64,000 bases of DNA, taken from contig CACJNL010000001.1 of the NCBI GenBank assembly GCA_902594815.1, positions 6,188 to 70,187 of the forward strand, read 5' to 3'. The translations under genes were made by a program, and so were the position numbers. The notes beneath the pieces were generated by a model that was given only the letters and a program-made list of their open reading frames with translations, ran no database searches and was not told the origin of the DNA. Shown piece after piece: positions 10,304-45,077 of the stretch (its first letter is position 1; each line of letters begins with the position of its first letter). The DNA comes from an uncultured Alphaproteobacteria bacterium (lineage in GTDB: Bacteria > Pseudomonadota > Alphaproteobacteria > HIMB59 > GCA-002718135).

Positions 10304-11274
10304 CAAATAAACTTGATGTTGTTGGCATAGGTAATGCCATGGTTGATGCAATGATCCCTTCTAATAAAGAAGAGGTTGAAAAAAATAATTTAAATCGAGA
10401 CTCCATGAATTTAATTGATGAAGACTTAAAAAACTCCCTTCACAAAAATTATTCCATAAAAGAAATGATCGGGGGAGGCTCTCTTGGAAACTCAATGTTT
10501 GGGATTACTTCGTTTGGTGGAAATGGGAGTTTTATTGGTAAAATTAAAAATGACGACATCGGAATTTTTCTTCAAAAAGATATGGTGAGAGAAGGGTTGC
10601 AATTCCCACTTGGTTTTACTTCCCCTGATATTTCAACTGGTTGTTGTACTATTTTTGTAGAAGATGATGGAACAAGAACAATGTGCACTTTTTTAGGAGC
10701 TGGAACATTAATTAGCCCAGAAGATATTCATCCTGAGCACATCACTAGTCACAAAATTGCTTATTTAGAGGGATACCTTTGGGATAATCAAAATGCCAAG
10801 ATGGCAATGAAAAAAATGGTTGATATATGTAAATCAGATAATCAACAAATAGCATTTACTTTATCTGATTTATTTTGTGTCGATAGACATCGTGATTCAT
10901 TTAAAGAATTAATTGAAAATGATATTGATATTTTGTTTGCGAACGAAGATGAAATTAAAGCACAATGCCAAACTGATAGTTTTGATAAAGCTGTTGATTA
11001 TGCAAAATCTCTTAACATGATTGTTGCAATAACTAGATCAGAAAATGGTTCAGTTGTGATAAATAAAAATGAAGTAATAGAAATTAATCCCGTACAAGTC
11101 GATAGAGTTGTAGATACAACAGGTGCGGGGGATCTATATGCAGCTGGTTTTTTATTTGGTGTTGCAAAAAATAAAGATCTATCAACCTGTGGTCACTATG
11201 CATCAATTGCAGCTGCTGAAATAATTTCTCATTATGGAGCAAGGCCTTTAGTAAAATTATCTAATTTAGTTTAG
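10300..11274 (+). CDS. PfkB-family kinase, probable adenosine kinase
   Basis: The start is moved to ATG 10300, an ATGA overlap with the upstream stop; the track ORF starts at 10237 inside the upstream gene. It has the PfkB motifs VVGIGNAMVD and VVDTTGAGDLYAAGFLFG. It converges on adenosine deaminase. Confidence 0.75.
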   Translation: MTNKLDVVGIGNAMVDAMIPSNKEEVEKNNLNRDSMNLIDEDLKNSLHKNYSIKEMIGGGSLGNSMFGITSFGGNGSFIGKIKNDDIGIFLQKDMVREGLQFPLGFTSPDISTGCCTIFVEDDGTRTMCTFLGAGTLISPEDIHPEHITSHKIAYLEGYLWDNQNAKMAMKKMVDICKSDNQQIAFTLSDLFCVDRHRDSFKELIENDIDILFANEDEIKAQCQTDSFDKAVDYAKSLNMIVAITRSENGSVVINKNEVIEINPVQVDRVVDTTGAGDLYAAGFLFGVAKNKDLSTCGHYASIAAAEIISHYGARPLVKLSNLV

Positions 11275-12241
11275 CTAAAACTTCTCTTTTCTTTTGTTCG
11301 TCTAGAAATGAATATTCGATAGCATTTCTTGTCATCGATATAAGAGCATCATCAGTAAAACCTATATTACTCATTGCTTCATACTCTCCTTGTATTGTAG
11401 CATTGAAGAAGGGAGGGTCATCAGAGTTGACTGTCACTTTAGCACCCAACTCGTGTAATTTTTTTACTGGATGATTTTCATAATTTTCATAAATTTTGGT
11501 GGCAATATTACTGGTAGGACATGTTTCTAAGACAATATCTTTCTCAATAATTTCTTTTACCAATTCTAAGTCTTCAATTGACCTTACACCGTGACCCAAT
11601 CGTGTAGGATGCAATAAATTAATAGCTTTACGAATATTCTCTGGACCATCCCATTCACCTGCATGAACGGTAATGGGAAAATTTTCTTCTTTTAGCATAT
11701 CAAAGGTTTTTGAAAATAAGTGTGGGGGGAAATGCAATTCATCTCCTGCCAATCCAAAACCCACAAGTGTGGGGTGGGGATTTTTTAGAACTTCTTCAGC
11801 TGTGCCCTGAACCGATGCAGGTCCTAAATGTCTAATGCCATTCATTAAGTAACGTGACACAATTCCAAAGTCCCTCTCTGCGTTTAGTGAAGCTTCTTGA
11901 ATACTATCCAGAAAAGATTGGTAGGTCATTCCCTTAGCTTTTGCATGCGTTGAAGAAACCATTGCTTCTACATAAAGCACTTTATGAGAAGCGCATTCTT
12001 TTAAATATTCATATGTTAATTCATAATAATCTTCTGGTGTATGAATGACAGAAGTTACGATGTCATATTTTTTTAAAAAATCATAAAAATCTTCCCACTG
12101 ATACGCATACTCAGAGCCAAAAAAATCATCTGAGAGGATCACTTTATTGCGCTTGGCAAATTTTCTACATAAAGATGGTGTTATTGTTGCCTCAAGATGG
12201 ACATGAATTTCTGCTTTTGGTATATGAGATATTGAGTTCAT
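11261..12241 (-). CDS. add: adenosine deaminase
   Basis: Motifs KAEIHVHLEATI, HAGE and SDDPPFF. The preferred start is ATG 12241 (MNSISHIPKAE...). The longer track start at 12274 would overlap the divergent gene. Confidence 0.85.
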   Translation of the reverse strand: MNSISHIPKAEIHVHLEATITPSLCRKFAKRNKVILSDDFFGSEYAYQWEDFYDFLKKYDIVTSVIHTPEDYYELTYEYLKECASHKVLYVEAMVSSTHAKAKGMTYQSFLDSIQEASLNAERDFGIVSRYLMNGIRHLGPASVQGTAEEVLKNPHPTLVGFGLAGDELHFPPHLFSKTFDMLKEENFPITVHAGEWDGPENIRKAINLLHPTRLGHGVRSIEDLELVKEIIEKDIVLETCPTSNIATKIYENYENHPVKKLHELGAKVTVNSDDPPFFNATIQGEYEAMSNIGFTDDALISMTRNAIEYSFLDEQKKREVLAKLN

Positions 12242-12267
12242 GAAATTTATTTTATATTTATAGATTA

Positions 12268-13089
12268 ATGTCAATTTTTAATAACATATCAAGGAGAAAG
12301 TTTATTTATGGATCGACTTGTTTTTGTGCATCAAGCTTAATTTTACCATCCTGTACTGAGGTTGCGTTATCAGAACGACAACAGTTTAATATTTTATCAG
12401 ATGATTTTTTGTATTCAAAAACTTTTCCTGCATACAATAATTTCAAATCGCAGTCTAAACTGATCACTGGGACATCAGAATATAATGAAATAGTTGATAT
12501 TGGTTTTAGAATCCGCGATGCCATTAATGTGTATTACAATACAAAGGGACAAGAAGATCCAACATCTAATTTTCAGTGGGAATTTATTCTTGTTGATGAT
12601 GATCAAACCAAAAATGCTTGGTGTATGCCAGGTGGCAAAATTGCATTTTATTCTGGAATTCTTCCCATAGCTAAAAATGAAGATGGTATTGCATCCATCA
12701 TGGGACATGAAATAGCCCACGCAGTAGCAAGACACTCCGCAGAAAGAGCTAGTACGGCAATGCTAACTGATTTTGGAATAATGGCTTTAGAAAAATTTGT
12801 TTTAGGGCAACGACTGCCGCAGGCATCTGGATATGTTCGACAATTTGGTCTTGATTTGCCTTTTAATAGAAAACAAGAATCCGAAGCAGATTATTTAGGA
12901 ATAATTTTTTCAAGCTTAGCAGGTTATAATATTGAAGAGTCTTATAAAGTTTGGGAGCGAATGAAAGAAGAGACAGGTTCTGGTCCCACAGAATTTTGGA
13001 GTACCCATCCATCACCAGATAATAGAATTAAAAAATTAAAGGAATGGATACCGATTGTATCAAGACAGTATCCTGCTATAAGTGTTTAA
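12268..13089 (+). CDS. M48-family zinc metallopeptidase, lipoprotein
   Basis: Lipobox (LILPSC), HEIAHAVARH zinc motif and a downstream E(S)EADY motif. Confidence 0.8.
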   Translation: MSIFNNISRRKFIYGSTCFCASSLILPSCTEVALSERQQFNILSDDFLYSKTFPAYNNFKSQSKLITGTSEYNEIVDIGFRIRDAINVYYNTKGQEDPTSNFQWEFILVDDDQTKNAWCMPGGKIAFYSGILPIAKNEDGIASIMGHEIAHAVARHSAERASTAMLTDFGIMALEKFVLGQRLPQASGYVRQFGLDLPFNRKQESEADYLGIIFSSLAGYNIEESYKVWERMKEETGSGPTEFWSTHPSPDNRIKKLKEWIPIVSRQYPAISV

Positions 13090-15757: not shown

Positions 15758-16777
15758 TTACCATCCAACTCTATCAATTATTTTTTGAGCTTCAGGAGCA
15801 AGTTCAGCAATTTTTATAATTGGTAATTTATCTTCCCTGAAGTTTCCCCAGGAACTAAGCTCTTTACTTGGATTTACGATGGGATTAACAGGATACTCAA
15901 AATTTATTTCACCATATAATTGTTGAGATTCTTTTGTAGTTAAAAATTCTAACAACATTATTGCTTCTTTTTTGTTTTTTGAGTGTAGGGCAACACCTCC
16001 ACCCGATATGTTAATATGTGCCCCGCGGTCACCTTCTTTTTGATTTGGAAAAATCAGCTTTACTTTTTCAGCCCATTTTCTTTGCTCAGGATCTTCAGAA
16101 AATTTTAATTTTCCATAATAATAATTATTAATAATTGCTATATTGCATTCACCTTCATAAATTGACTTAATTTGCGCTCTGTCATTTCCTTGAGGTCTTC
16201 GCGCAAAATTATTTACAAGACCTTTTGCCCAAGCTTCCGCGTTTGCTTCTCCGTATTCCGCTAAAACAGATGCCATGATCCCTCTATTATAAACATGACT
16301 TCCAGGCCTTGAACAAATTTGGCCTTTCCATTTCGAGTCGGCTAAGTCTTCTAATCTAGTTATTTCACCATCCTTAATTTTTTCTTTATTTACCGCAATA
16401 ACCCTTGCTCTTTTAGAGAGAGCAAACCAATTGTTTTCAGGGCTTCTTAAATGTGATGGGACATTTTCTATTAATTTTTTTGACTCTATAGAGGCTAAAA
16501 GATTCAAATCTGAGTAAATATATAATCTTCCTATATCGACAGTTAAAATAACGTCAGCTGGACTGTTTTCTCCTTCTGATTGTAATCTTTGTGCAAGACC
16601 TTTTTTTGAATAGATAACGTTTGTTTTAATTCCAGTTTCATTCGTAAACAATTCTAAAAAAGGGTTAATTAAGAAAGGTTGTCTATGCGAATATATATTA
16701 ATTTCTTTAGCAAAAAGATTTAGTGAAAAACATGTAATAAAGATTATTGATAAAATATTAATAGTATTTTTTTTCAT
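15758..16777 (-). CDS. fbpA: Fe(3+) ABC transporter periplasmic binding protein
   Basis: 339 aa with a signal peptide. FbpA/SfuA-like sequence and size. Confidence 0.8.
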   Translation of the reverse strand: MKKNTINILSIIFITCFSLNLFAKEINIYSHRQPFLINPFLELFTNETGIKTNVIYSKKGLAQRLQSEGENSPADVILTVDIGRLYIYSDLNLLASIESKKLIENVPSHLRSPENNWFALSKRARVIAVNKEKIKDGEITRLEDLADSKWKGQICSRPGSHVYNRGIMASVLAEYGEANAEAWAKGLVNNFARRPQGNDRAQIKSIYEGECNIAIINNYYYGKLKFSEDPEQRKWAEKVKLIFPNQKEGDRGAHINISGGGVALHSKNKKEAIMLLEFLTTKESQQLYGEINFEYPVNPIVNPSKELSSWGNFREDKLPIIKIAELAPEAQKIIDRVGW

Positions 16778-17777
16778 TAGAATAACTCCTCTTAAAAAGA
16801 TTAAAATAAAATTTTTTTCGTAGCAAATTTAAATTTTTAATAAAATAATTCTTTATTTCAAAAAAAGGATTTAAATATAGTGTTTTTAAATCATGACTTT
16901 CGTCTTTTTGATTTTTTTCAATTCCAAGATTGAGTGTTTCAAAATCAACAGAATGATGTAATGAACCAAAAAGCCAATCCCAAATTGCTAATGCAGCGCC
17001 AAAATTTTTATCATGATGTTCCTTAGCTATAGAGTGATGCAGTTGATGTTGGGCTGGTGAAATAAAAATATATTCTACCCACTTCCAATATTGAATACCT
17101 ATATGAGAATGCCGTAAGTTTGAACCCAATACATTAAATATAAATACAAAAATATTTACTCCCAATATTGTAAACAAGCTAACTGTATTTCCAAATAAAA
17201 AAATAAATGTTGAAATACTAATAGCTTGTGTAACTGAACTTCTTAAAGAAAAAATAATTCCTTCTAACGGATGTGTTCTAAACACTGTCATTGGGGTAAG
17301 AACGGTTGCTGAATGATGGACTTTATGCAGTGACCAAAGAATTGGCCAACGATGCATAAATCTATGAATGAAATACTTACTAAAATCATCAATGGTAAAT
17401 TGAAAAGTCGTAAAAGAAATTACCACAATAATAGGTAAAGTATTTGAAAACATTCCAACACTAAGCCAATCTATTGAGTGAAAATAAAAGTATAAGGCTG
17501 TGGCTATTGTTAAGTGTGTTATCAATATTGGTGAAACTATCATCATTATTAATTGATTGATGAAAAAAACTTTATAATCTGATTTTGCTGATTTAGAAAA
17601 AAATATATTCCAATTAAAAATTTTTTTTAAAGCGGTTTTTAAGGTAAATTTTTTATTTAAGATAAACCAACCTAAGGCAATGAATATTGATATAACAATA
17701 TATGCAATAAAAACTCTTTTTTTTGGATCAATAAATTGACTACCAATTTTAAAAAAATAGTCTGACAGAATATCCAT
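16758..17777 (-). CDS. fatty-acid hydroxylase / sterol desaturase superfamily membrane di-iron oxygenase
   Basis: 339 aa, polytopic, with three His boxes (HRFMHR, HKVHHS, HQLHHS plus HHDKNFG). The 3' end overlaps the fbpA start by 20 nt. Confidence 0.8.
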   Translation of the reverse strand: MDILSDYFFKIGSQFIDPKKRVFIAYIVISIFIALGWFILNKKFTLKTALKKIFNWNIFFSKSAKSDYKVFFINQLIMMIVSPILITHLTIATALYFYFHSIDWLSVGMFSNTLPIIVVISFTTFQFTIDDFSKYFIHRFMHRWPILWSLHKVHHSATVLTPMTVFRTHPLEGIIFSLRSSVTQAISISTFIFLFGNTVSLFTILGVNIFVFIFNVLGSNLRHSHIGIQYWKWVEYIFISPAQHQLHHSIAKEHHDKNFGAALAIWDWLFGSLHHSVDFETLNLGIEKNQKDESHDLKTLYLNPFFEIKNYFIKNLNLLRKKFYFNLFKRSYSNEKKYY

Positions 17778-17788
17778 ATAACTTCATA

Positions 17789-17813
17789 GTGTGGCTTTTT
17801 TAAAAAGCCACAC
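17789..17813 (-). other. intercistronic perfect palindrome/hairpin GTGTGGCTTTTT(T)AAAAAGCCACAC
   Basis: Read directly. 12-bp arms (7 GC-rich plus 5 A/T) in the 47-nt gap between the 458-aa gene and the hydroxylase gene. No U-tract follows on the minus strand. Confidence 0.4.
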
Positions 17814-17824
17814 AAAATTTAATA

Positions 17825-19201
17825 TTAGTCATTTTCTGCAGAGTCTGAACTGCCTAGTGAGCTAGCAAGATCTTCCATCGCAGATAGTTGATCATTAGCT
17901 TTAGCAGTGACGCCAAATTCATCGATCATAAGTTTTTGAATTTTAAGCATATGTAACTTAAACTCACCCCATTCCTGAGCTTGATCTTTGATGAAATTAC
18001 CATTTGAATCAACTCCAACAACTTGTGAAGCATTTAGTAGAACTGGTCCAAAGCCCATCATTCTATTCATTTTAACAGCTGCTTCTCCTAGATTTTCTGG
18101 TCCACACTGAAGTGCTAAAGCAAAGCCTTTAAGCTCTCCCCAATGTTTTGCATATTTTCTAAACGTATCAGTCGTATCACCATTTGCTTCGACGATTGTT
18201 TCAAGCGCTACTATATCTTTGTAGGTTGAACCTGCATACTTAAATACAGACTCAGCAATTACTTTTTGCCAATTATCTCTAATAGTATCTCTTGCTGCTA
18301 ACATAGCAGTTCTTTCATCAAAGTTAAGGTTACGACCACCAGCATCTCTAATAACTTCTCTTCCATCTATAAATGCTTGATTAACTGTAGCAAGGTAGTT
18401 TGTCTTTCCACCTTTGTCATAACTTGATGCGTAGTAAGCATGAGCATATAACATCTCAGAATACAAATCTACAACACCATCTCCATTATAATCTGCTGAA
18501 GATAAATCTTTCATCTTGGCAACGTTATAGTTTTCTTCAGCTGATAATGTTAAAGAATGTGCTGGCGCACCCCAATATCCAAAAGCTTCATCCCAACTAT
18601 GTTCTTTACCAGTATAATAAGATCCTTCTTTGTAAGGTTTATTATTTGGTTTTTCCCCAACTTTCATTTTTTTTCCAAGATAGTTATTTACTGCTTGGTT
18701 GTAGAACACAGCACCCATTGCAAATTTAGAAATCAATTGTGTGTAATCAAATCCAGTATTTGGATCAAAACCACCCTCAACTTCACTAGCTTTTTGCATC
18801 ATGTGTTCAATAGCTTCAGGACCGGTTAGTCCTCCCCAGCCAGGAATTGCGCCTTTATACATTTTGCCAGACAAGTTACCACTACCTATTTCAGCAACCA
18901 TGGTTTGCATAACAGGGAAACCATCCTTAGATTTTGGGGCAATGATTTCTAGACCATCTTCACCATTGTAATAAGCCATCATTTTATCGAGATCACCTGT
19001 TTTAACAAGTTTTTTCAAACTATCATGCAGAACTTGTCTCGCCATTTGACCAGTATATTTTACAGAATTTGTCTTATCGCCATCATAACCTTTAAGTGTA
19101 ATTGGATAAGGTCCATATATTTGATGACCATCAGCCAATAATGATTTTGAAAAACTAATTGCTATTATTATTGAAGCAACAATTGTAATTATTTTTTTCA
19201 T
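17825..19201 (-). CDS. secreted protein of unknown function (first gene of the iron operon)
   Basis: 458 aa with a clean signal peptide (…FSKSLLA/DGHQ) and SD GAGGAG 6 nt upstream. The EHSWDEAFGYWGAP segment only faintly recalls the imelysin/EfeO-type H..E..LWG motif (also considered: DUF4856). No confident family call. Confidence 0.8.
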   Translation of the reverse strand: MKKIITIVASIIIAISFSKSLLADGHQIYGPYPITLKGYDGDKTNSVKYTGQMARQVLHDSLKKLVKTGDLDKMMAYYNGEDGLEIIAPKSKDGFPVMQTMVAEIGSGNLSGKMYKGAIPGWGGLTGPEAIEHMMQKASEVEGGFDPNTGFDYTQLISKFAMGAVFYNQAVNNYLGKKMKVGEKPNNKPYKEGSYYTGKEHSWDEAFGYWGAPAHSLTLSAEENYNVAKMKDLSSADYNGDGVVDLYSEMLYAHAYYASSYDKGGKTNYLATVNQAFIDGREVIRDAGGRNLNFDERTAMLAARDTIRDNWQKVIAESVFKYAGSTYKDIVALETIVEANGDTTDTFRKYAKHWGELKGFALALQCGPENLGEAAVKMNRMMGFGPVLLNASQVVGVDSNGNFIKDQAQEWGEFKLHMLKIQKLMIDEFGVTAKANDQLSAMEDLASSLGSSDSAEND

Positions 19202-19227
19202 AAACTCCTCGTAATAAATTTTTAATT

Positions 19228-19273
19228 GCGGGAGCAGAATAACGGAATTGCTGATCTTGTTTATTGCTCCCGC
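19228..19273 (-). promoter_or_regulatory. GC-rich stem-loop in the 5' leader of the iron operon
   Basis: Perfect 9-bp stem GCGGGAGCA/TGCTCCCGC enclosing 28 nt. It ends 17 nt upstream of the SD, in an otherwise AT-rich leader. Confidence 0.4.
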
Positions 19274-19370
19274 GTCCTCTTATTGAGAATCTAACAACTT
19301 TTTTATTTATAAAATTTCAAAGTTTAATTATAAAAAAATTCCCTAGGTATTTTCTAAAGAATTTAATATT

Positions 19371-19388
19371 TTTAGAATTATTCTAATT
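19371..19388. promoter_or_regulatory. ICE (Irr) / Fur-family type operator, copy 1: TTTAGAATTATTCTAATT
   Basis: 7-1-7 palindrome TTAGAAT-T-ATTCTAA. It fits the Irr iron control element TTTAGAA-N3-TTCTAAA at 13/14 positions. An extra half-site (TTCTAAA, 19352-19358) overlaps a possible -35 for TATAAT (minus strand, 19332-19327). Identical to copy 2. Confidence 0.6.
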
Positions 19389-19393
19389 AAATA

Positions 19394-19762
19394 TTAATTA
19401 GAAAAATACTTCTTTTGATCTAAATACCATTTAGTCAGCATCAATGAATAGTTTTCAGACAAGCAATAAGACTTTGATCTTCTATCTTTTTTTGATGATT
19501 TTTTAATGAAAAAACCTTTGCTAACAGCATAATTAAGTGTCGAGTAAATTGTAGATCTACAGCCGAGCTTTGACGGTATTTTTTTACATAACATCTCATA
19601 TGACATACATTGATTATTGAAAGTTGAAGAAGCAATTTCAAGACTAATCAAACGTGTAAGTGCGGATGAATAAAAAAAGTTATAACAGGGATCTATATCT
19701 TTTTTAGTATAAAAATCTTTTTTTACTAAGTCTACAACGTTTTCTAAACCTAACATAGTCAA
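19394..19762 (-). CDS. small winged-helix (MarR-like) transcriptional regulator, Cys-rich
   Basis: 122 aa from TTG 19762, or 120 aa from ATG 19756. wHTH pattern ...MSYEMLCKKIPSKLGCRSTIYSTLNYAVSKGFFIKKSSKKDRRSKSYCLSE... Five cysteines. Flanked on both sides by the 18-nt box. Confidence 0.6.
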   Translation of the reverse strand: MTMLGLENVVDLVKKDFYTKKDIDPCYNFFYSSALTRLISLEIASSTFNNQCMSYEMLCKKIPSKLGCRSTIYSTLNYAVSKGFFIKKSSKKDRRSKSYCLSENYSLMLTKWYLDQKKYFSN

Positions 19763-19771
19763 ATATTTTTA

Positions 19772-19815
19772 GGAGTGAAAGATTGCGCTGGTACCTGCAA
19801 CAACCTTTCAACCCC
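19772..19815 (-). promoter_or_regulatory. long imperfect hairpin in the 5' leader of the regulator gene (candidate cis-regulatory RNA)
   Basis: Minus-strand RNA GGGGUUGAAAGGUUG-(15 nt loop containing GGUACC)-CAAUCUUUCACUCC. It forms 14 pairs with one bulge. The two non-Watson-Crick positions are G-U on the minus strand but A-C on the plus strand. A 22-codon uORF (19827..19759) spans it. Confidence 0.45.
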
Positions 19816-19912
19816 AAGTAGAAACATACGGTTTTTTTTTATGGATTTTAATTTAAGAGTACAGTTTAATTTTTATATTAGGGATATATATTGAAAACTC
19901 ATCATTATTAAA

Positions 19913-19930
19913 TTTAGAATTATTCTAATT
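19913..19930. promoter_or_regulatory. ICE (Irr) / Fur-family type operator, copy 2: TTTAGAATTATTCTAATT
   Basis: Exact 18-nt repeat of 19371-19388. About 150 nt upstream of the regulator start and abutting the hupE stop codon. Followed by another TTTAGAA half-site (19929-19935). Confidence 0.6.
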
Positions 19931-20532
19931 TAGAATAAAAAAGATATACCAAATAGAGCGCATCCAGCTCCAGCAACTTTTAAAACAATTGATGAAAATT
20001 TAGTCTTAATAGCTAAACTCCCTATTCCCACACCAAAAAGATGTAATATTGCTGTTCCTGATGCAAAGCCAAGTGCAAATAAAATTGGGTTAACTGCCCA
20101 TGGCATCTCCATGCCGTGCGCTAATCCATGACACATCCCAAAAATACAAATGAAAATCATTATAATATTAGTGGCAATTTTTTTTTCTATCGCAATTGCT
20201 AAGCCTAATAATATGACAGAAAAGACTATACCGTATTCAACAACTATAAAGGCAGATTCTTCTAAATCAAAAAAGAAAACCTCAATCAACATGCCAATGG
20301 TACCGCCGATAATCATCATTAAGACAAAGGTTGCAGGAATGGTCCAAATTGCTCTTCCTCCAATTTGGGCACTTACAATACCAACACTAACCATTGCTAA
20401 AAAATGATCTATCCCTAATACTGGATGAGAAAGACCATCATAAAAACCTACCATCCCTGTAAAAGTATGTGCATGGGCTCCAGAGGTATAAAAAACTAGA
20501 GATAAAAACAGTAAAATTAAATTAGCTTTCAT
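19930..20532 (-). CDS. hupE: HupE/UreJ-family metal (Ni/Co-type) transporter
   Basis: 200 aa. Signal peptide ending GAHA/HTFTG, then the GFYDGLSHPVLGIDHFLAMV signature and about 6 TM helices. Confidence 0.85.
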   Translation of the reverse strand: MKANLILLFLSLVFYTSGAHAHTFTGMVGFYDGLSHPVLGIDHFLAMVSVGIVSAQIGGRAIWTIPATFVLMMIIGGTIGMLIEVFFFDLEESAFIVVEYGIVFSVILLGLAIAIEKKIATNIIMIFICIFGMCHGLAHGMEMPWAVNPILFALGFASGTAILHLFGVGIGSLAIKTKFSSIVLKVAGAGCALFGISFLF

Positions 20533-21230
20533 GCAAATCCTTTCTGTTTTCTTGAAAATAATTTTTTAATAATAAAATAAATTAGAAATATTATAACTAC
20601 TAAAGCTATATGCGGAATATAAGCACGAATATCAAATTTTTGCCAATGCAATATATCCATAGCAGGCCCAATATATAAAAGGATAGGAGCCCATGTTAAA
20701 GTTTGCTCCCACAAATTAGATCCAAAAAATTCAGCTTCTCCTACTGCAAGAGAATAATGTCCTGAATTATTTTCATTAAAAATTTGAATTAAATAAGAAC
20801 CTGCATTCAAATTAAAACTTCTCTTAAAACCAGTATCTTCATTAACTTCGGCTCCTATTTCCGGTCCTTTCCAATACCAATCTCTAGCATACGGTTCATA
20901 CCAGGCTTCCCATTCAAAATTTTGGCCATCTGCAAAAAATTTTAAAATTTTATTATTTTTTTCATTAATTGAATATACAGCAATCGATAACCATAAATGG
21001 TCATCATCAACTTTAGGACTTAAAATTCCAGTATAAAATAAAAATTCTTCTTCACTATTAATTAAATAATAGTGTGGTTCACCGTTAAGCTTGCCATAAT
21101 ATGCTTTAGATATCTCTGGGTCTATAACTTCATGAGGATTATCAACAGAAGGTGAGTAATTAATTAACTTTGGCTGATGGGCAAATAAATTAGAACTAAA
21201 TAATAAGAAAATAATTACAATTAATTTCAT
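20529..21230 (-). CDS. secreted, C-terminally membrane-anchored protein of unknown function (predicted mature N-terminal His)
   Basis: 233 aa. Signal peptide …SSNLFA/HQPKL, a soluble domain of about 165 aa, then two C-terminal hydrophobic helices. 4-nt overlap with hupE. Confidence 0.75.
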   Translation of the reverse strand: MKLIVIIFLLFSSNLFAHQPKLINYSPSVDNPHEVIDPEISKAYYGKLNGEPHYYLINSEEEFLFYTGILSPKVDDDHLWLSIAVYSINEKNNKILKFFADGQNFEWEAWYEPYARDWYWKGPEIGAEVNEDTGFKRSFNLNAGSYLIQIFNENNSGHYSLAVGEAEFFGSNLWEQTLTWAPILLYIGPAMDILHWQKFDIRAYIPHIALVVIIFLIYFIIKKLFSRKQKGFA

Positions 21231-21269: not shown

Positions 21270-21296
21270 ATAAAAATGGGGCCACATTGGGCCCCT
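21270..21296 (-). terminator. rho-independent terminator of hsp20
   Basis: Minus strand: GGGGCC-CAATGT-GGCCCC followed by ATTTTTATTTTATT, about 35 nt after the hsp20 stop. Confidence 0.75.
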
Positions 21297-21329: not shown

Positions 21330-21767
21330 TTATTTAATATCTATTAACCGAGCCTTTTTCTCCTCGGGGATTATGCGCTCTAAATCAATATTTAAAAGAC
21401 CATTCAACAATTCAGCATTCTTCACTTTAATGTCCTCAGATATAGTAAAAGATCTCTCAAACTGTCTGGTTGAAATTCCTTTGTGAATAACACCATTACC
21501 TTCTTCATTCACTACTTTTTCTTTTTGTTTATTGCGAACTGTAAGTGTGTTTTCTTTAAGCTCTAATTCTATATCATCTCTAGAATATCCAGCTAAAGCA
21601 ACTTCAATTTTATAATCATTCTCATTTACTCTTCGAATGTTATAAGGTGGATAGTTTGAATTATAGCGCTCTGTAGACTCCAACATTCTATCAAATTCTT
21701 CGAAGATTGAGTCAAACCCAACTGAAAAGGGTCTAAGCGAATTCCATACGGATAGGTTTCTTGTCAT
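21330..21767 (-). CDS. small heat-shock protein, Hsp20/alpha-crystallin family (IbpA-like)
   Basis: 145 aa with an alpha-crystallin domain (YKIEVALAGYSRDDIELELKENTLTV…GISTRQFERSF). Confidence 0.9.
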   Translation of the reverse strand: MTRNLSVWNSLRPFSVGFDSIFEEFDRMLESTERYNSNYPPYNIRRVNENDYKIEVALAGYSRDDIELELKENTLTVRNKQKEKVVNEEGNGVIHKGISTRQFERSFTISEDIKVKNAELLNGLLNIDLERIIPEEKKARLIDIK

Positions 21768-21825: not shown

Positions 21826-21860
21826 TAACATGGGAATGCTTAAAAAATATTCAAGTGGGA
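21826..21860 (-). promoter_or_regulatory. sigma-32 (RpoH) type heat-shock promoter of hsp20
   Basis: Minus strand: TCCCACTTGAA-N15-CCCATGTTA, against the consensus CCCTTGAA-N13-17-CCCCATNT. Confidence 0.55.
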
Positions 21861-21862
21861 AT

Positions 21863-22519
21863 TTATTTTTTTCGAATAAATGACAGACCATCAGATAGCG
21901 GAATTAAGGAAAATTCTACTCTTTTATCCTCTTTAATTTTTTGATTAAGGTCACGTATAGCTTGGGTGCGTGAGTCTAATATAGAAATATCTGCTACATC
22001 ACCGTGCCAAAGCATATTATCAATAATAATTATTCCATTAGAAGAAAGTAAACTTAAAGCTAACTCATAATAGTTTGGATAATTGTTTTTATCAGCATCA
22101 ATAAAGATAATATCAAAAACATATTGTCGGTCTATAAAGCTTTGCATCACCTCAGTGCCATCACCTATAATTGATTTTATTTTTGATGCTTGATCATCTT
22201 GATCCCAGTATTTTTCCGCAATAGGTAAAAATTCATCTGACGTATCGACAGTTACTATTTTACCGTCTTTGGGGAGTCCTCGAGCCATATATAAAGTGCT
22301 TAATCCTGTAAACCGTCCAATCTCTAAGCAAGATTTTGCATTTGAAATCTTTACAATAATTTCTAAAAATTGACCTTGTTCTTTCGCAATTTGCATGCGT
22401 GCAACTTTTCCAAGTTTCTTTGTCTCACTTGCAAGTTCATCAACAAGAGTATCTTTTCTATAACCAAGTTCTTGTAGATACTTTTTTAAATCTTGATTAA
22501 TTTCTACTTGTTCACTCAT
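21863..22519 (-). CDS. class I SAM-dependent O-methyltransferase (caffeoyl-CoA OMT/YrrM-like)
   Basis: 218 aa with CLEIGRFTGLSTL (motif I) and FIDADKNNY, typical of Methyltransf_3. Last gene of the operon. Confidence 0.8.
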   Translation of the reverse strand: MSEQVEINQDLKKYLQELGYRKDTLVDELASETKKLGKVARMQIAKEQGQFLEIIVKISNAKSCLEIGRFTGLSTLYMARGLPKDGKIVTVDTSDEFLPIAEKYWDQDDQASKIKSIIGDGTEVMQSFIDRQYVFDIIFIDADKNNYPNYYELALSLLSSNGIIIIDNMLWHGDVADISILDSRTQAIRDLNQKIKEDKRVEFSLIPLSDGLSFIRKK

Positions 22520-23832
22520 TATGAAATTACTTCATAAATATCTGAATGATTTGCAACCTCATCATCACCAATTAAAAAATACTCTTCTATTTTTTTTTCA
22601 ACATTTTCAAAATCTTTATCCGAATGACAGTACAATGTTAGTAAGGGGGTAGAGCCATCAACCTTATCTCCAACGCTTAACACATTATCGTAACCCACAT
22701 TAAAATTAATTTTATCTGTAACCTGTTTTCTGCCGCCACCAAGTTCAATAAGTACCAAACCTAGATCTCTTGTTTTTATTTTTTGGACATATCCCGACTG
22801 CTGAATATAAATATCTTTTTTGAATGCATCTATTTGCAACTCAGTATTATATGAAGACAAGATATTTGATGTGCCCCCTAAGGCTGCCACCATTTTTTCA
22901 AATTTTTCAGCAGCTTCTCCATTTGATATGACAGTATCTATTTTTTTTAGAGCCTCTTCCTTTGAGATATTTTGTGCCATCATTAAAATTGAAGCGACTA
23001 ATTCATAGGTGATGTTATGGAGTCTCGGGTCTTTCTCTTGATTTGTCAAAAAGTTAATGCATTCTAAAATTTCTAACCTATGACCTGCCGTCTTACCTAA
23101 TACTTGATTCATATCTGTGATAATGGCCTCACATTTTAATCCTGCACCCTTTGCAACACGAACAAGAGAATTCGATAAGTCTCTTGCAATTTCTATAGTG
23201 CTATTAAAAGAACCATTACCAACTTTCACATCTAGGACTAATGTTTTTAATCCTGATGCTATTTTTTTTGATAGGATGGATGAAGTAATGAGAGGTAAAG
23301 ATTCAACTGTTCCAACAATATCTCTAATTGAGTAAAGTTTTTTATCCGCTGGCGCCAGGTTATCTGTTTGTCCAATAATCGCACACCCAACTTCTTTCAA
23401 AACTTTCTTAAATGTTTCTAGATCCGGTTGCGTATTATAACCAGGGATAGAGTCGAATTTATCTAGAGTGCCACCTGTGTGACCAAGTCCCCTTCCAGAA
23501 ATCATTGGAACATACAAACCACAGGCTGCTAAAATAGGCGCTAAGATTATACTTGTTTTATCTCCCACACCACCTGTTGAGTGTTTATCACAAACTAATT
23601 CCTCATCTAAAATACTTGACCAATCAATAGTGTCTCCAGAAACTGTCATAGCTTCAGTTAAATTGACAGTCTCCTCAGGTGTCATGCCATTTGAAAAAAT
23701 GGCCATACTCATTGCAGCAATTTGAGGATCCGAAAATGAACCGTCCGTTAACCCTTTTGCAAAAAGGAATATTTCTTCTTTTGTAAGAGCTTTTTTATCT
23801 CTTTTTTTTCTAATTATTTCCTGAGGAATCAT
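22519..23832 (-). CDS. deoA: thymidine/pyrimidine-nucleoside phosphorylase
   Basis: 437 aa with KHSTGGVGDKTS, SGRGLGHTGGTLDK and a C-terminal PYNP domain. Confidence 0.9.
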   Translation of the reverse strand: MIPQEIIRKKRDKKALTKEEIFLFAKGLTDGSFSDPQIAAMSMAIFSNGMTPEETVNLTEAMTVSGDTIDWSSILDEELVCDKHSTGGVGDKTSIILAPILAACGLYVPMISGRGLGHTGGTLDKFDSIPGYNTQPDLETFKKVLKEVGCAIIGQTDNLAPADKKLYSIRDIVGTVESLPLITSSILSKKIASGLKTLVLDVKVGNGSFNSTIEIARDLSNSLVRVAKGAGLKCEAIITDMNQVLGKTAGHRLEILECINFLTNQEKDPRLHNITYELVASILMMAQNISKEEALKKIDTVISNGEAAEKFEKMVAALGGTSNILSSYNTELQIDAFKKDIYIQQSGYVQKIKTRDLGLVLIELGGGRKQVTDKINFNVGYDNVLSVGDKVDGSTPLLTLYCHSDKDFENVEKKIEEYFLIGDDEVANHSDIYEVIS

Positions 23833-24637
23833 TTAATTCAACTTCGTTGATATAATTTTTTATCAGTTGGAGAATATTTTTTTCGGCAAGACTGGCATTT
23901 TCTAAAGTTTCTTGATGGCTCAATTTTGTTTTATTCATCCCAGCAGCTAAGTTTGTAATTACACTAATAGCAACAACTGGAAGATCACAATGATTAGCAA
24001 CTATTACTTCTGGCACAGTTGACATACCTACTGCATTACCTCCAATAACTCTTAAAGCATTAATTTCTGCAGGTGTTTCAAAATTAGGACCAGAATACAT
24101 GCAGTAAATTCCCTCGTATATTTTTTGATTTAATTTTTTTGCAGTGTTTAGAAGTTGATAGCGATAAAATTTATGATAGGCATCGCTCATATCATGAAAT
24201 CTTGGTCCATATTCTTCATCATTTTTTCCAATGAGTGGATTAAATCCACTCCAATTTATATGATCGGAAATTGCCATCAAGCTACCTGCTGGCATAGTTT
24301 CATCTAAACTCCCAGCAGCATTTGTGACGATTAAAAGTTTACACCCAATATCTTTTAAAACCCTAATTGGTTTAGCAAGACTATGGGGTTCATGTCCTTC
24401 ATAAATATGAGAGCGACCATACATACAAACTACTTTTCTTTGACCTATCTCTCCTAATACTAATTTTCCCGCATGACCCTTAACAGTAGGTTGAGGAAAG
24501 TCAGGAAGGTCTGTATATGAAATTTCTTTGATAATATTTTGAAGTTCAAAAAAATTTGTCAAACCACTTCCTAATATAACGGCAACATCTGGATTAGTAT
24601 TTGTTTGTTCTAAAAAAATTTCTGATGAAGTATGCAT
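23810..24637 (-). CDS. purine nucleoside phosphorylase (trimeric PNP/PunA type)
   Basis: 275 aa with VILGSGL, GRSHIYEGH and VGMSTVPEV motifs. Confidence 0.9.
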   Translation of the reverse strand: MHTSSEIFLEQTNTNPDVAVILGSGLTNFFELQNIIKEISYTDLPDFPQPTVKGHAGKLVLGEIGQRKVVCMYGRSHIYEGHEPHSLAKPIRVLKDIGCKLLIVTNAAGSLDETMPAGSLMAISDHINWSGFNPLIGKNDEEYGPRFHDMSDAYHKFYRYQLLNTAKKLNQKIYEGIYCMYSGPNFETPAEINALRVIGGNAVGMSTVPEVIVANHCDLPVVAISVITNLAAGMNKTKLSHQETLENASLAEKNILQLIKNYINEVELNDSSGNN

Positions 24638-25053
24638 TATAAATTTTCTGGACCAAAAGAATCAGGAAGCAACTCTTTAAGTGTTGATGTTTTCAAATGT
24701 CCACTTGTGTTGCACATATGTATTTTTACATCTAATGTGGCAAACTCTCTTAATCGTTGACGACAACCACCACACGGAGAACATAATAAGTCGCCAGAGC
24801 CAATAACAACAACTTCTTTAATTTTAGTAAAACCATTGGCAATAAGATTACCAATCGCACTTGCTTCTGCGCATTGTGATTGAGGATACGCAGCATTTTC
24901 AACATTACATCCAGCAATTATGGAGTTATTTTCAGTTAAAAAAGCTGCACCTACTTTAAATTTTGAATAAGGCACGTGGGCATTGTTTCTAACTTCTTTT
25001 GCAGCATTAAAAAGTTTTTCAAAATTTTCTGAAATCATATATTCGTTTAACAT
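24637..25053 (-). CDS. cdd: cytidine deaminase
   Basis: 138 aa with the CAEASAI and PCGGCRQ zinc motifs. Confidence 0.9.
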   Translation of the reverse strand: MLNEYMISENFEKLFNAAKEVRNNAHVPYSKFKVGAAFLTENNSIIAGCNVENAAYPQSQCAEASAIGNLIANGFTKIKEVVVIGSGDLLCSPCGGCRQRLREFATLDVKIHMCNTSGHLKTSTLKELLPDSFGPENL

Positions 25054-25079
25054 GAAATTTAAAAAAAAATTATTTATTT

Positions 25080-26231
25080 CTAAATCTTGAACAAATCTTC
25101 CGTTAAATTGGGTAGGTCATCACCCCAAAAAACTTCTCGACGCAAAAACTCGGGATCTTTGTTAAAACAAATAGACATCGCAGAATTGTAAACTGCTCTT
25201 GAGTCGATTGTAGAATTTAGATCTCTTCCTTCAAACAACTCTTTCTTTTTAAGGCCTGGCCAATCTGTATACACTTGTGATTTTTTAAGTAAGCCGCCAG
25301 CCATTAATATTGCACTACCATAACCATGCTCTGTGCCATAACCCCCATTTTGTTTAATTGTTCTACCAAATTCTGTTAAGGTTAAAATAAGTGTATTATC
25401 AAAAGCACTACCAAGATTTTCGTATAGAATTTTTACAATTTCATTTACCTCCTCCAGTTCATCAGCATGAGCTCCATCTACCCCTCCCTGAGCTGCATGG
25501 GTATCAAAACCATCTAATTCAAAAACAGCTACTCTTGGACCACTTTGATCTTTTAATTGTTTTGCTGCTTCAAGGGCGAGTTTTTTTCTATCTTCTGAGT
25601 CAGTGGCAATTTGCATGGATAATGGTCTTTGCCTGATTGTATCAAGTGTTGACTTAATGAGCTCATTATGATCACCTTTAAATTCATCATAAATTTGATC
25701 GATCAATTTTGTTTCCACAAAATCTGGAGATGGGAAAAAATTATTATTTTGAGGAACGCCTCTTAATAAAAGTGGCATAGGTAGAGATATTGCTAGACCT
25801 TTTCCAACAATATCTGATGCCAACAACCCTCTCCCCAACCATCCAGTCTTTTCTTTGTAAGGAATATGAGCCCCTGTTTCCATTAAGTTTTGTCCATCAA
25901 AATGTGATCTTCCTGTGTAAGGAATATTAGTTGCATGAACAAACGCTGCCTTATTATCTTTCCAAAGTTGGTGAAAAATTTCTAACTTAGGGTGAAGACC
26001 AAAATCGCTATTTAATTTTAGAACATCCTCAAGTATTAGTTTTTTTCTTAACTTCTTTAAACGCTTATCCCCAATAACAGGTACTGCTGTAAGACCATCC
26101 ATTCCACCACGAAGTGAAATGATGATCAGGTTTTTTTTCTGCATGGAAGCAAAGCTTATTTTTGGGAAAAATCCTGATAGAAATAATGTTGTTGATCCTC
26201 CAATTAGAAAATTTCTTCTTGTACAGTTCAT
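25080..26231 (-). CDS. DUF1501 family protein (Tat-exported, sulfatase/alkaline-phosphatase-like fold)
   Basis: 383 aa. Twin-arginine signal (TRRNFLIGG), LRGGMDGL and LTLTEFGRT blocks typical of DUF1501. Confidence 0.8.
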   Translation of the reverse strand: MNCTRRNFLIGGSTTLFLSGFFPKISFASMQKKNLIIISLRGGMDGLTAVPVIGDKRLKKLRKKLILEDVLKLNSDFGLHPKLEIFHQLWKDNKAAFVHATNIPYTGRSHFDGQNLMETGAHIPYKEKTGWLGRGLLASDIVGKGLAISLPMPLLLRGVPQNNNFFPSPDFVETKLIDQIYDEFKGDHNELIKSTLDTIRQRPLSMQIATDSEDRKKLALEAAKQLKDQSGPRVAVFELDGFDTHAAQGGVDGAHADELEEVNEIVKILYENLGSAFDNTLILTLTEFGRTIKQNGGYGTEHGYGSAILMAGGLLKKSQVYTDWPGLKKKELFEGRDLNSTIDSRAVYNSAMSICFNKDPEFLRREVFWGDDLPNLTEDLFKI

Positions 26232-27664
26232 ACTTTTAATACTCCTGGTAAATTACATATAATTCCATATTTTCGTCCTAAATCTTTATCTGTTGTACCA
26301 AACCTAAATTGATAAATATGAGCAGCCATTTTTTCATGATCTTCAAAATTATTTTTCAAACAACGTAAAATAAAATCATGTGATTTATTTTGAGAGTTTA
26401 CTAAATAAGGTAGCTCAACTGAAGCAAACCAAAAGCGTCTTAATAATAATTCTGGTGATACCCAATCTACTTCAAAATCACTCCAGCCATTTGGTTGTTT
26501 AGCTCTATAGGGTGAATTGCCTATTTCACGGAGAATCCAGGATAGTTGTTTTTGTCTATTTGTTGGCTTAAGTTTAAAAGTATAGCTCATCTTTTCAGCT
26601 GAAAGAGGAATATTTAAATCAAACATTCTTGAAAGTTGCATTAACCATATTTCAGGTGGATGAAATTTATGAGTACTGCTATTGTATTTGAAAGCTTGCG
26701 TAACAACAGCTTTATGAATTTCGATTAAATTACCATTAGATCTATTCCATGCCTCAATTACTGGATCTATCATTTCTTTAGTTGGTTCATCGGTAATAAA
26801 GTGTCTACATAATTTAGTTGAAACAAATTTTATACACATCGGATGTGTTGCTAAATCATGAATTACTTTTGCAAGTTCCCTTTTTGCATCATTTTTATAT
26901 TTTTTTCCTAAAACTACCTTGTCTCCTTTTTGATGCATTTCTTGATCAAACCAGATATCAGCTGTTTCAAGATCTTTATTATTCCACTTATGACACCAAC
27001 CAGTCATTATATATGCTAACTGGATGACATCCTCTTGCGTATATCCCGCCCTTGGGGATACAGTATGAAGCTCTAGCAATTCTCTTGCATGATTTTCATT
27101 AATTGTTTCCCTCCACTCCATTCCTTTTTTAGAATTAGGGCCAAAAGATTCGGAATTATCGAGATGATGGATCATGCACCATGACGTTGTTACTGCCTGT
27201 ACCATTTCTTCAAAAGTTTTTACCATATTAGGTCTTATTATTTCGCGTTGGTAAGGACCGGTACTAAACTCTGCTAAAAAATCTTTTTCACTTATGGCAA
27301 AATGATTTCCCCAAAAAAGCCAGAAGCGTTCGAATACAGGTTGTGTTCCATACTTTGTTTGATAATGGCGAATAGCATGTTCATTTAATTCAAAATATCT
27401 TTCACCAGTTTCAATTCTCAACTCATCTTTTGCTTTTCTGTATGCATTTTTGTCACTTTTGAATTTTTTTCTTAATACTTCTCTGTCTCCGTATACCCAT
27501 TCCCCATATTTTTTTCGTAATTCTTTTTCTGTTGGTATAGAGCCTTTCCATAAAAAGTCAGGAACTGTGTTTAATTGGTTTAATGCCCAACTGAGAGGCT
27601 CTTGCGGAATCTCCTCTTGTGGTGATAATCCAAATGCAACTCTTCTATAAAAATTTAATGACAT
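26228..27664 (-). CDS. DUF1800 family protein
   Basis: 478 aa with the NHFA... and ARELLELHTV... blocks typical of DUF1800. 4-nt overlap with DUF1501, its usual partner. Confidence 0.75.
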   Translation of the reverse strand: MSLNFYRRVAFGLSPQEEIPQEPLSWALNQLNTVPDFLWKGSIPTEKELRKKYGEWVYGDREVLRKKFKSDKNAYRKAKDELRIETGERYFELNEHAIRHYQTKYGTQPVFERFWLFWGNHFAISEKDFLAEFSTGPYQREIIRPNMVKTFEEMVQAVTTSWCMIHHLDNSESFGPNSKKGMEWRETINENHARELLELHTVSPRAGYTQEDVIQLAYIMTGWCHKWNNKDLETADIWFDQEMHQKGDKVVLGKKYKNDAKRELAKVIHDLATHPMCIKFVSTKLCRHFITDEPTKEMIDPVIEAWNRSNGNLIEIHKAVVTQAFKYNSSTHKFHPPEIWLMQLSRMFDLNIPLSAEKMSYTFKLKPTNRQKQLSWILREIGNSPYRAKQPNGWSDFEVDWVSPELLLRRFWFASVELPYLVNSQNKSHDFILRCLKNNFEDHEKMAAHIYQFRFGTTDKDLGRKYGIICNLPGVLKV

Positions 27665-27716
27665 AAAACAAAAAACTAGTTTACATATATTTTGAATTTA
27701 GAAAATAATAATATTA

Positions 27717-28368
27717 ATGAATAAAGTATCACTAAAAATTTGTGGAATAACGAATACATTGTCGGTTAAAACCGCACACAAAAATAAAATAAAATCCCTT
27801 GGTTTTGCCAGTAATAATTTAAATGGACCCAATACTGCATCAGATAAAAAAATACAGTCACTAATTAAAGAGTGTAAAAATTACAAAATTGAATCAGTTT
27901 TACTTAGTCGTTACGTTTCACTTGATAAATTAATTCAACAAATCGATTTTACTAAACCAAAAACTATTTCATGTTCTTACCATTTTAGTAAATATGAATT
28001 ACAAACATTGCGCAAAACTTTTAAACGGCTAAAGATTGGAATTTCAATTAATCCGGAGAATTTTAATCTGCGGTATATTAAAAATATCAAAAAACTTAAT
28101 CAATGTTATTTATTTCGATATGAACGTATACAAAAAAAGGAGCATAAAAACATATTCACTCAATAAGTGCATTAAACAAATTAAATCTATTAAAAACTTA
28201 TCGATCCCTGTTTTTATAGGTGGAGGGATCAATGGAGTTAAAGCAAAGCAAATAATTAATATAGTGAAACCTGATGGTATCGATGTTTCACGCAGTCTCA
28301 AAAATACAAAAAATATTATCTCATCAAAGAAACTAAAAAATTTTTTGAAAGAGATTGCAGTAGCTTAA
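27717..28368 (+). pseudogene. TrpF-like (phosphoribosylanthranilate isomerase fold) gene with a +1 frame change near an A5/A6 run
   Basis: Track ORFs 27717..28166 and 28036..28368 join as MNKVSLKICGIT...LKIGISINPENFNLRYIKNIK | LINVIYFDMN...IPVFIGGGINGVKAKQIINIVKPDGIDVSRSL... This gives a (beta/alpha)8 protein of about 217 aa with TrpF-like KICGIT, (L)D and GGG(I)N...DVS blocks. The shift lies within about 28080-28100. The GGSG phosphate loop is not evident. Confidence 0.55.
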
Positions 28369-45032: not shown

Positions 45033-45077
45033 AAATTTAAATTTTTATTTTTGGTCTCACCTTAAAAGTTTTATTAC

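Follow-up and report, generated by a model that had tools for sequence, protein, structure and literature searches.

We analysed a stretch of 64,000 nucleotides (nt) of contig CACJNL010000001.1, from an uncultured alphaproteobacterium (the window), in which six minus-strand open reading frames (ORFs) fill positions 21863-27664. They encode a DUF1800 protein, a DUF1501 protein, a cytidine deaminase (cdd), a purine-nucleoside phosphorylase (PNP), a pyrimidine-nucleoside phosphorylase (deoA) and an O-methyltransferase (OMT), as listed in Table 1. DUF1800 matches PF08811 with 265.7 bits against a cutoff of 26.1 (residues 5-431), and DUF1501 matches PF07394 with 83.4 bits against a cutoff of 27, the aligned part being residues 228-349 only. 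The matches of cdd, PNP and deoA to TIGR01354, NF006054 and NF004490 all exceed the curated cutoffs, at the equivalog level. DUF1800 and DUF1501 overlap by 4 nt and a gap of 26 nt separates DUF1501 from cdd; the remaining junctions are overlaps of 1 nt (cdd/PNP), 23 nt (PNP/deoA) and 1 nt (deoA/OMT). An earlier note on this DNA had described six co-directional genes with these coordinates, overlaps and gaps, which agree exactly with the ORF list, and its family assignments of all six were upheld by Pfam and NCBIfam-type models. The explanation that we consider probable is that two independent modules are juxtaposed here: the DUF1800-DUF1501 pair, as a phosphoesterase of the alkaline-phosphatase (AP) type exported through twin-arginine translocation (Tat) and provided with an obligate signal-less partner, and a separate nucleoside block.

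Table 1. Features of the six-gene run and of its surroundings (positions are those of the window)
Feature	Position	Strand	Basis or remark
DUF1800 protein, 478 aa	26228-27664	-	PF08811, E 1e-78
DUF1501 protein, 383 aa	25080-26231	-	PF07394, E 2e-23
Predicted Tat signal peptide of DUF1501, residues 1-28	26148-26231	-	sequence: T4-R-R-N-F-L9, hydrophobic core, S-F-A28
DUF1501-cdd junction, 26 nt, A/T-rich (AAATAAATAATTTTTTTTTAAATTTC)	25054-25079	-	without terminator
cdd, homotetrameric-type cytidine deaminase, 138 aa	24637-25053	-	TIGR01354, 152.8 bits vs cutoff 113.65
Purine-nucleoside phosphorylase, punA/PNP-I type, 275 aa	23810-24637	-	NF006054, 346 bits vs cutoff 218; PF01048; PRK08202
deoA, thymidine/pyrimidine-nucleoside phosphorylase, 437 aa	22519-23832	-	NF004490, 555.8 bits vs cutoff 269; PRK05820
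SAM-dependent O-methyltransferase (Methyltransf_3, class I OMT / TrmR-like), 218 aa	21863-22519	-	PF01596, E 1e-60
Conserved 13-nt element TGTAAACTAGTTT, holding 10-bp palindrome AAACTAGTTT	27673-27685	-	8-20 nt before the DUF1800 ATG
trpF/PRAI-like gene	27717-28368	+	starts 52 nt from DUF1800
Presumed sigma-32-like promoter of hsp20/ibpA, CTTGAA-N15-CCCATGTT	21827-21855	-	sequence; 3' limit of the six-gene run
hsp20/ibpA	21330-21767		family models; downstream of OMT
G+C stem after hsp20	21278-21295		6 bp, perfect
Extra segment of about 4.5 kb	16758-21230	-	between hsp20 and SBP/permease ABC genes
pfkB kinase	10237-11274		10-20 kb from the six-gene run
Adenosine deaminase	11261-12274		10-20 kb from the six-gene run
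Bmp ABC importer	41423-46055		10-20 kb from the six-gene run
upp	46166-46786		10-20 kb from the six-gene run

An exhaustive HMMER search for DUF1800 returned 7,644 representative clusters at E <=0.001. A 71-sequence alignment from this search led to 80 loci drawn from species-representative genomes of Alpha-, Beta- and Gammaproteobacteria, Acidobacteriota, Gemmatimonadota, Binatia and three Pelagibacter lineages; with 80 further loci anchored on deoA, about 160 loci were compared in total (designated below by L and a number). In 78 of the 80 DUF1800-anchored loci the gene immediately after DUF1800 is DUF1501, on the same strand. Homologues of cdd, PNP, deoA, OMT, upp, Bmp, add and pfkB were found by tblastn (E <=1e-5) within 10 kb of the pair in none of the 80. 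Clustering of 959 neighbouring ORFs gave weak recurrences only, namely an extracytoplasmic-function (ECF) sigma factor in 10 of the 80 loci, mostly on the same strand and about 1 kb upstream, a glutathione S-transferase (GST) in nine loci, and a Metal_resist/LTXXQ periplasmic protein directly upstream of the pair in six. The 133 immediate neighbours represent 122 Pfam families, the commonest of which, Metal_resist, accounts for five, and no nucleoside, nucleotide or phosphate-uptake family is among them. In 40 of 74 loci the next downstream gene runs in the opposite direction. The enrichment of nucleoside and phosphate genes for which the earlier note had proposed a neighbourhood check is thus not seen, and DUF1800-DUF1501 is an autonomous two-gene unit. 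Earlier publications already report the pair with its operon-like arrangement and Tat-bearing DUF1501, without characterisation: it has been noted as a predicted operon with a Tat-signal DUF1501, and in some Gamma- and Alphaproteobacteria, some of them plant-associated, a link of the pair to bacterial chitin-synthase clusters is described (PMC5122149). A literature search on both names found no function for DUF1501 or DUF1800; cdd, PNP and deoA are textbook enzymes.

The best protein matches of the window are to metagenome-assembled genomes (MAGs) and single-amplified genomes (SAGs) of Pelagibacteraceae/Pelagibacterales, and because of these matches we regard it as part of a SAR11-type streamlined genome. 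Among orthologues in Pelagibacterales, the gene order of the window is repeated only in its closest lineage, at 87-88% identity (L007, L008). Where DUF1501 orthologues are 65% identical, a SOUL-domain gene follows the pair (L001-L003, L009), and at 55-61% identity a GT2 glycosyltransferase gene stands before the pair and umuDC (on the other strand) or unknown genes stand after it (L004-L006, L010-L013). The deoA-anchored set comprises 80 metagenome loci (L091-L170) with 60-98% deoA identity. In these the cdd-PNP-deoA-OMT block is present wherever the sequence allows, with hsp20 next in nearly all, and the OMT gene follows deoA in nearly every related locus that reaches past deoA. This constant linkage of the OMT to nucleoside genes may outdo that of the DUF pair in both conservation and interest.

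A census of the 36 loci with at least 1.5 kb of sequence upstream of cdd revealed a constant frame, composed of pabC-folP-folB-folK, the trpF-like gene, a slot, and cdd-PNP-deoA-OMT-hsp20. The slot is occupied by the DUF pair in 17 of the 36 loci (for example L094, L095, L098, L113, L124 and L140), is without the pair in 18, and in one (L136) holds a DUF1501 remnant only. Half of the 18 pair-less slots are empty, the trpF-like gene lying 50-200 nt from cdd; six carry a malate synthase G or A gene co-oriented with cdd (L118, L119, L156, L166, L167, L170), which a 135-aa membrane protein accompanies in five cases; and three have other or unexamined slot sequence (L117, L148, L160). The malate-synthase slots sometimes have an ATPase-inhibitor zeta subunit gene or an EamA-like gene as well. 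The region is otherwise syntenic, and the slot is a small hotspot of variation within it. Directly upstream of cdd in L136 (4670-4789) there remain about 40 C-terminal codons of DUF1501, and in L129 (637-846), a locus outside the count, the last 75 codons remain between the trpF-like gene and cdd. Because these two loci retain 3' remnants of DUF1501, the pair has been lost there by deletion, with cdd and its block left intact. As both remnants spare the 3' end of DUF1501, that end might carry an element needed for cdd expression, such as an internal cdd promoter. Overall, since the block persists without the pair and the pair is widespread without the block, the linkage to nucleoside genes does not recur across genomes, a result that the earlier note had itself named as refuting its inference.

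The spacing of the genes carries little information in such a genome. The window has a G+C content of about 33% and is about 96% coding; the median gap among its 47 same-strand gene pairs is -1 nt, 66% of these gaps do not exceed 26 nt, and even between neighbours on opposite strands the median distance is 32 nt. Overlaps and short gaps are the genome default, and tight spacing is no evidence of a functional operon. The gap between DUF1501 and cdd had been described as lacking a hairpin, and this was confirmed. There is no terminator-like hairpin in the 26 nt or at any of the six-gene junctions, and positions 25030-25130 fold no better than shuffled sequence (z = -0.38). In the 3' end of DUF1501 and the junction, the search for a conserved internal promoter gave only weak sigma-70-like hexamers, and promoter-like matches are at the background of A/T-rich DNA (39 found, 34.9 expected). 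The 26-nt junction is kept in pair-bearing relatives (L094, L095, L098, L102, L124), and a related TAATTTTTTTT stretch precedes cdd in loci without the pair, whose A/U-rich cdd leader the junction resembles. Co-transcription of the six genes in this clade is plausible, and read-through from the pair into cdd, which would give one six-gene transcript, is likely because no terminator intervenes.

In the N-terminus of DUF1501 (MNCTRRNFLIGGSTTLFLSGFFPKISFA, opening MNCTRRNFLIGG) a twin-arginine motif is followed by a hydrophobic region and an AxA-like site. An RRxFL-type Tat motif is present in 75 of 78 DUF1501 partners from other genomes, and two relatives give weak matches to PF10518 (TAT_signal), so that the twin-arginine signal attributed to this protein holds for the window and extends to its relatives. 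The alignment shows full-length homology of the window DUF1501 to the DUF1800 partners of 22 other loci. Among the 23 aligned DUF1800 partners (30-65% identity) the invariant residues are G42, D45, R108-S109-H110-F111, Q114, W131 and D243-T244-H245, and further E287-F-G-R-T291, N295, T300, H302 and R336-D337, position 301 being D or E. Ser109 is the putative nucleophile, in the conserved context Y-x-x-R-S-H-F-D/E-G/A-Q. This pattern, with one Asp following the first strand, a Ser where a helix begins, and the motifs D-x-H and D/E-H, is what we take to be the metal-site and serine-nucleophile layout of the AP superfamily. An S1 (formylglycine) sulfatase was considered and rejected, as neither the conserved motif nor the 23-sequence consensus contains C/S-x-P-x-R.

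The AlphaFold2 model of DUF1501, built from a shallow, SAR11-only alignment (profile-search sequences at 55-58% identity), has a mean pLDDT of 62 and a pTM of 0.74. Every significant Foldseek match of this model in the PDB (E 2e-5 to 6e-3) belongs to the AP superfamily, and the matches include carrageenan and choline (S1) sulfatases (E 2e-5), autotaxin, an iPGM-like protein, YejM, LtaS and EptC; for those at E 2e-5 to 1e-3 the Foldseek probability is 0.99-1.0, but the TM-score is only about 0.4 (about 0.3-0.4 over the fold matches), low because of the pLDDT of 62. The sulfatase/alkaline-phosphatase-type fold named in the earlier note is in line with these matches. By sequence, no solved relative was found among PDB chains with either protein or with the DUF1501 profile, NCBIfam has no model for DUF1800 or DUF1501, and in a Pfam scan at permissive settings (E up to 10) no further match to a sulfatase, phosphodiesterase or metalloenzyme family appeared. 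Taken together, we hold with good confidence that DUF1501 is an exported AP-superfamily hydrolase.

In L095 DUF1501 is 97% identical to that of the window, compared with 84% for DUF1800, 80% for deoA and 65% for folK, and it is far more conserved than its neighbours in L095, L096, L099, L102, L104, L105 and L124. Such high conservation may come either from very strong purifying selection or from recent recombination among SAR11 lineages. Being the most conserved protein locally in L095, DUF1501 would be under strong constraint where it is kept.

DUF1800 gave an AlphaFold2 model of high confidence (pLDDT 94.9, pTM 0.94), all-alpha with two small hairpins, for which the PDB contains no meaningful solved-fold match (best E 0.19, TM 0.11). 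The family motif NENxAREllELH is invariant in the 71-sequence alignment, and the invariant polar residues N189, N191, R194, E195, E198, Y208 and D212 form a cluster that looks like a binding or active site. None of these 71 diverse members has an N-terminal hydrophobic stretch or signal peptide, and in all of them a conserved R-F-G-L/F-G motif lies only a few residues from the start, which suggests that DUF1800 is co-exported with DUF1501 or acts as its chaperone. The asymmetry of the signals and the overlapping stop and start codons likewise suggest that DUF1800 binds DUF1501 in the cytoplasm. For complex formation, co-export or chaperoning by DUF1800 we put the chances at nearly even. In Entotheonella, two DUF1800 proteins are abundant in a vesicle fraction together with TolC and solute-binding proteins (PMC12981691), and these data weakly suggest an extracytoplasmic DUF1800. 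In one of the closest relatives (L008:6556-8004), DUF1800 is split in two, with ORFs of 181 and 280 aa, either as a pseudogene or by an assembly error; that contig has an intact DUF1501, intact nucleoside genes and otherwise the same gene order.

The pair also has a conserved sequence of its own at the 5' side. In nine loci TGTAAACTAGTTT is the sole invariant block of an otherwise variable divergent intergenic region of about 50 nt. The palindrome within it, AAACTAGTTT, occurs once per locus, at the same position, in 12 pair-bearing loci (the relatives L007, L094-L099, L102, L110, L113, L114 and L153), and was not found elsewhere in the 170 loci covered by this count. In some loci with the pair the element is degenerate or missing (L124, L140), and upstream of cdd in pair-less loci it is absent. 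The window has no exact or good second copy of TGTAAACTAGTTT, hence no regulon can be deduced. The element is a candidate for the -10 region of the pair's own promoter (-10-like TAAACT) or for the operator of a regulator. Pho-box, LacI-type and extended -10 readings of TGTAAACTAGTTT were considered as well, with no decision among them.

In the explanation that we prefer, the DUF1800-DUF1501 module is self-contained and found in Proteobacteria, Acidobacteriota, Gemmatimonadota and others. DUF1501 would be the catalytic subunit, a serine-nucleophile (RSHF) metalloenzyme of the AP superfamily that folds in the cytoplasm and is exported by Tat. DUF1800, translationally coupled to it, may bind DUF1501 before export, and then either hitch-hike out with it or serve as a dedicated maturation or proof-reading chaperone. 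Our guess at the chemistry is periplasmic phosphoester hydrolysis or transfer, for the scavenging of dissolved organic phosphorus or for the upkeep of envelope phosphoesters, and the genome context does not specify the substrate; a phosphoester substrate is possible though somewhat doubtful, and a nucleotide one most improbable. The second module, cdd-punA-deoA-OMT, would be the constant cytoplasmic nucleoside salvage and catabolism block of the subclade. The first would occupy the variable slot upstream of cdd, with its own promoter-proximal element and probable read-through into cdd, and their adjacency would be a lineage-specific accident of gene packing and not a conserved functional coupling. 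That the pair and the nucleoside block are evolutionarily independent we regard as very probable. The earlier note had proposed that the pair is a periplasmic phosphoester hydrolase feeding nucleoside catabolism. What stands of this is the exported AP-superfamily enzyme, on account of the Tat motif in 75 of 78 relatives, the Foldseek matches and the conserved residues; the nucleoside link falls with the count of none in 80 loci and the variable slot.

Several points weigh against the juxtaposition of independent modules as we describe it. D45, S109, D243, H245, D/E301 and H302 are invariant (position 301 as an acidic residue), and their roles are assigned by motif logic; the DUF1501 model is of low confidence; and the co-export of DUF1800 is deduced from its missing signal peptide only. 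The absence of nucleoside homologues from 80 loci refers to tblastn at E 1e-5, which may miss divergent or non-homologous enzymes such as a DeoD-type PNP or UshA. Adjacency of the pair and cdd persists down to 65% DUF1501 identity (L130, L140) and so marks an old junction, which is conserved and free of terminators, making stable co-transcription and some shared regulation possible. The window is rich in nucleoside genes. Finally, in the MarineAlpha5-type loci L001-L003 a nucleoside 2-deoxyribosyltransferase-like gene (PF11071) lies about 600 bp upstream of DUF1800. It is the only other nucleoside-related neighbour seen; an ABM monooxygenase-like gene is also upstream on the same strand, and an opposite-strand ORF separates both from the pair.

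Some of these points would be accommodated by a clade-restricted nucleotidase or phosphodiesterase, in which the pair frees nucleosides from dissolved nucleotides or nucleic-acid fragments, Bmp imports them, and cdd, PNP and deoA degrade them. Six co-directional genes with a conserved junction and no terminator agree with it, as does an adjacency that spans sub-lineages with DUF1501 identities from 65% to 99%, and the Tat signal, AP-superfamily fold and Ser nucleophile are compatible with phosphoesterase chemistry. The window also has genes for nucleoside transport and salvage: the Bmp importer, upp, a pfkB kinase (the adenosine kinase of the earlier note) and adenosine deaminase, all named in that note, are present, though 10-20 kb off. 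However, this linkage is found in none of the 80 diverse loci and no nucleoside family is among the 133 neighbours, orthologues in other Pelagibacterales stand in unrelated contexts, and about half of the subclade loci keep the block without the pair. The spacing, moreover, is the genome default, and, with malate synthase found in the same slot and orientation in some of them, co-orientation with cdd says nothing about function here. We consider this alternative very unlikely. Still less likely is its more specific form, a two-subunit Tat-exported phosphoesterase captured upstream of cdd in a deep-branching SAR11 subclade as a front end for nucleotides or DNA fragments, and the count of none in 80 together with the variable slot removes the comparative support for such a front end.

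The neighbours that do recur outside SAR11 point in another direction. The only ones credited are the ECF sigma factor (10 of 80 loci) and the upstream Metal_resist/LTXXQ protein (5-6 loci), and they would fit an envelope-stress or metal-homeostasis module that acts on an envelope phosphoester (lipid, lipopolysaccharide (LPS) or glycan), as EptC, LtaS and YejM do, and is not a nutrient scavenger. These three are among the Foldseek matches, which are weak, however, with a TM of about 0.3-0.4, and were obtained with a model of low confidence. The chitin-synthase cluster linkage in some Gamma- and Alphaproteobacteria (PMC5122149) and the GT2 glycosyltransferase directly upstream in the Pelagibacter-proper loci also suit an envelope function, but the association with sigma factor or Metal_resist is seen in only about 10% of loci and the SAR11 loci have neither neighbour; we judge it unlikely, if less so than a nucleotidase. 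The DUF1800 data can be read differently too, as a real enzyme or ligand binder that stays in the cytoplasm while DUF1501 acts separately in the periplasm, in a two-compartment pathway with no complex. The lack of a signal peptide in 71 of 71 DUF1800 members and an invariant polar cluster (N189, N191, R194, E195, E198, Y208, D212) typical of an active or binding site are in its favour; a 4-nt start/stop overlap and a strict order in 78 of 80 loci, as is usual for the subunits of a single complex, are against it, and the DUF1800 proteins in the Entotheonella vesicle fraction (PMC12981691) give a weak hint of an extracytoplasmic location. On this evidence separate compartments seem quite improbable, and the juxtaposition of two independent modules remains our preferred explanation.

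DUF1800/DUF1501 is one of the larger orphan pairs, with 7,644 DUF1800 clusters, and a functional lead would be useful. The window gives none: its nucleoside linkage does not extend beyond one SAR11 subclade, where it can be dispensed with. The lesson of the locus is that overlap and co-orientation are the default in streamlined genomes, the same slot holding malate synthase in sister lineages. The pair is flexible within SAR11 yet constrained where it is kept, a pattern expected of a niche-adaptive periplasmic function. A modestly interesting lead is the DUF1800 fold, whose high-confidence model is unlike solved structures, and the family-wide signal asymmetry (Tat on DUF1501, none on DUF1800) makes hitch-hiking or chaperoning directly testable.

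Regarding the genes around the run, DUF1800 has as its divergent neighbour a trpF/PRAI-like gene, whose protein has the N-terminal 'LKICGIT' and no Pfam match. Related loci have this gene as a single ORF (about 218 aa), but the window has two overlapping ORFs instead (149 and 110 aa), indicating a frameshift near 28040-28160, by pseudogenisation or sequencing error. On the other side, the promoter of hsp20/ibpA in Table 1 is presumed to be of the sigma-32 type by its likeness to the general consensus. A hairpin in the hsp20 leader is not significantly stable (z = -0.84) and has no ROSE match in Rfam, and the Rfam scan of the whole window found no RNA families. After hsp20 there is a perfect 6-bp G+C stem (GGGGCC...GGCCCC), rare in this A/T-rich window, which looks like a bidirectional terminator. 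The extra segment beyond it is missing in the 88%-identity relative L007, and encodes a fatty-acid-hydroxylase-family protein, a DUF4856 protein, a 122-aa ORF, HupE/UreJ and a 233-aa protein that lacks a Pfam match but has a signal-like N-terminus; it may be a metal-uptake islet.

Compared with the DUF1800/DUF1501 orphan family, the window pair agrees in gene order, in the Tat signal on DUF1501 and in the signal-less DUF1800, with scores far above gathering. There is no essential difference; the SAR11 versions are compact (4-nt overlap) and in this subclade lie upstream of cdd, a context unseen in the 80 loci. The nucleoside genes resemble the E. coli deoCABD, cdd and udp genes and the B. subtilis dra-nupC-pdp cluster in that cdd, PNP and thymidine phosphorylase are clustered and co-directional, likewise with a Bmp-type importer and upp nearby. 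In contrast to those clusters, the run has neither deoC nor deoB, its PNP is of the punA type and not of the DeoD type, the OMT is a constant fourth gene, and no CytR or DeoR regulator was identified for the block. Pyrimidine-usage genes have been described in deep-branching SAR11, in a paper on how SAR11 uses purines and pyrimidines that does not mention the DUF pair (PMC11698098).

As a nucleotidase, the pair would share with UshA, PhoX, PhoD, PhoA and PafA the periplasmic export (by Tat also in PhoX and PhoD) and a likely metal-dependent phosphoryl transfer; however, no homology of these proteins to the pair was detected, and there is no Pho-regulon or nucleotide context in the 80 loci. With the AP superfamily (S1 sulfatases, NPP/autotaxin, iPGM-like proteins, EptC, LtaS, YejM) DUF1501 has Foldseek matches and conserved motifs in common. 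It differs in showing no sequence similarity to solved members, in lacking the formylglycine motif, and in having an obligatory all-alpha partner, where the classical members have none. For that partner the nearest parallel is presumably to be found among Tat hitch-hikers (the small and large hydrogenase subunits, DmsA/DmsB) and the chaperones TorD, DmsD and NapD. No redox cofactor is evident in the pair, and DUF1800 (about 450-500 aa) is much larger than the known Tat chaperones, but the arrangement, here predicted from sequence, is alike: one signal-bearing protein and one coupled, signal-less partner.

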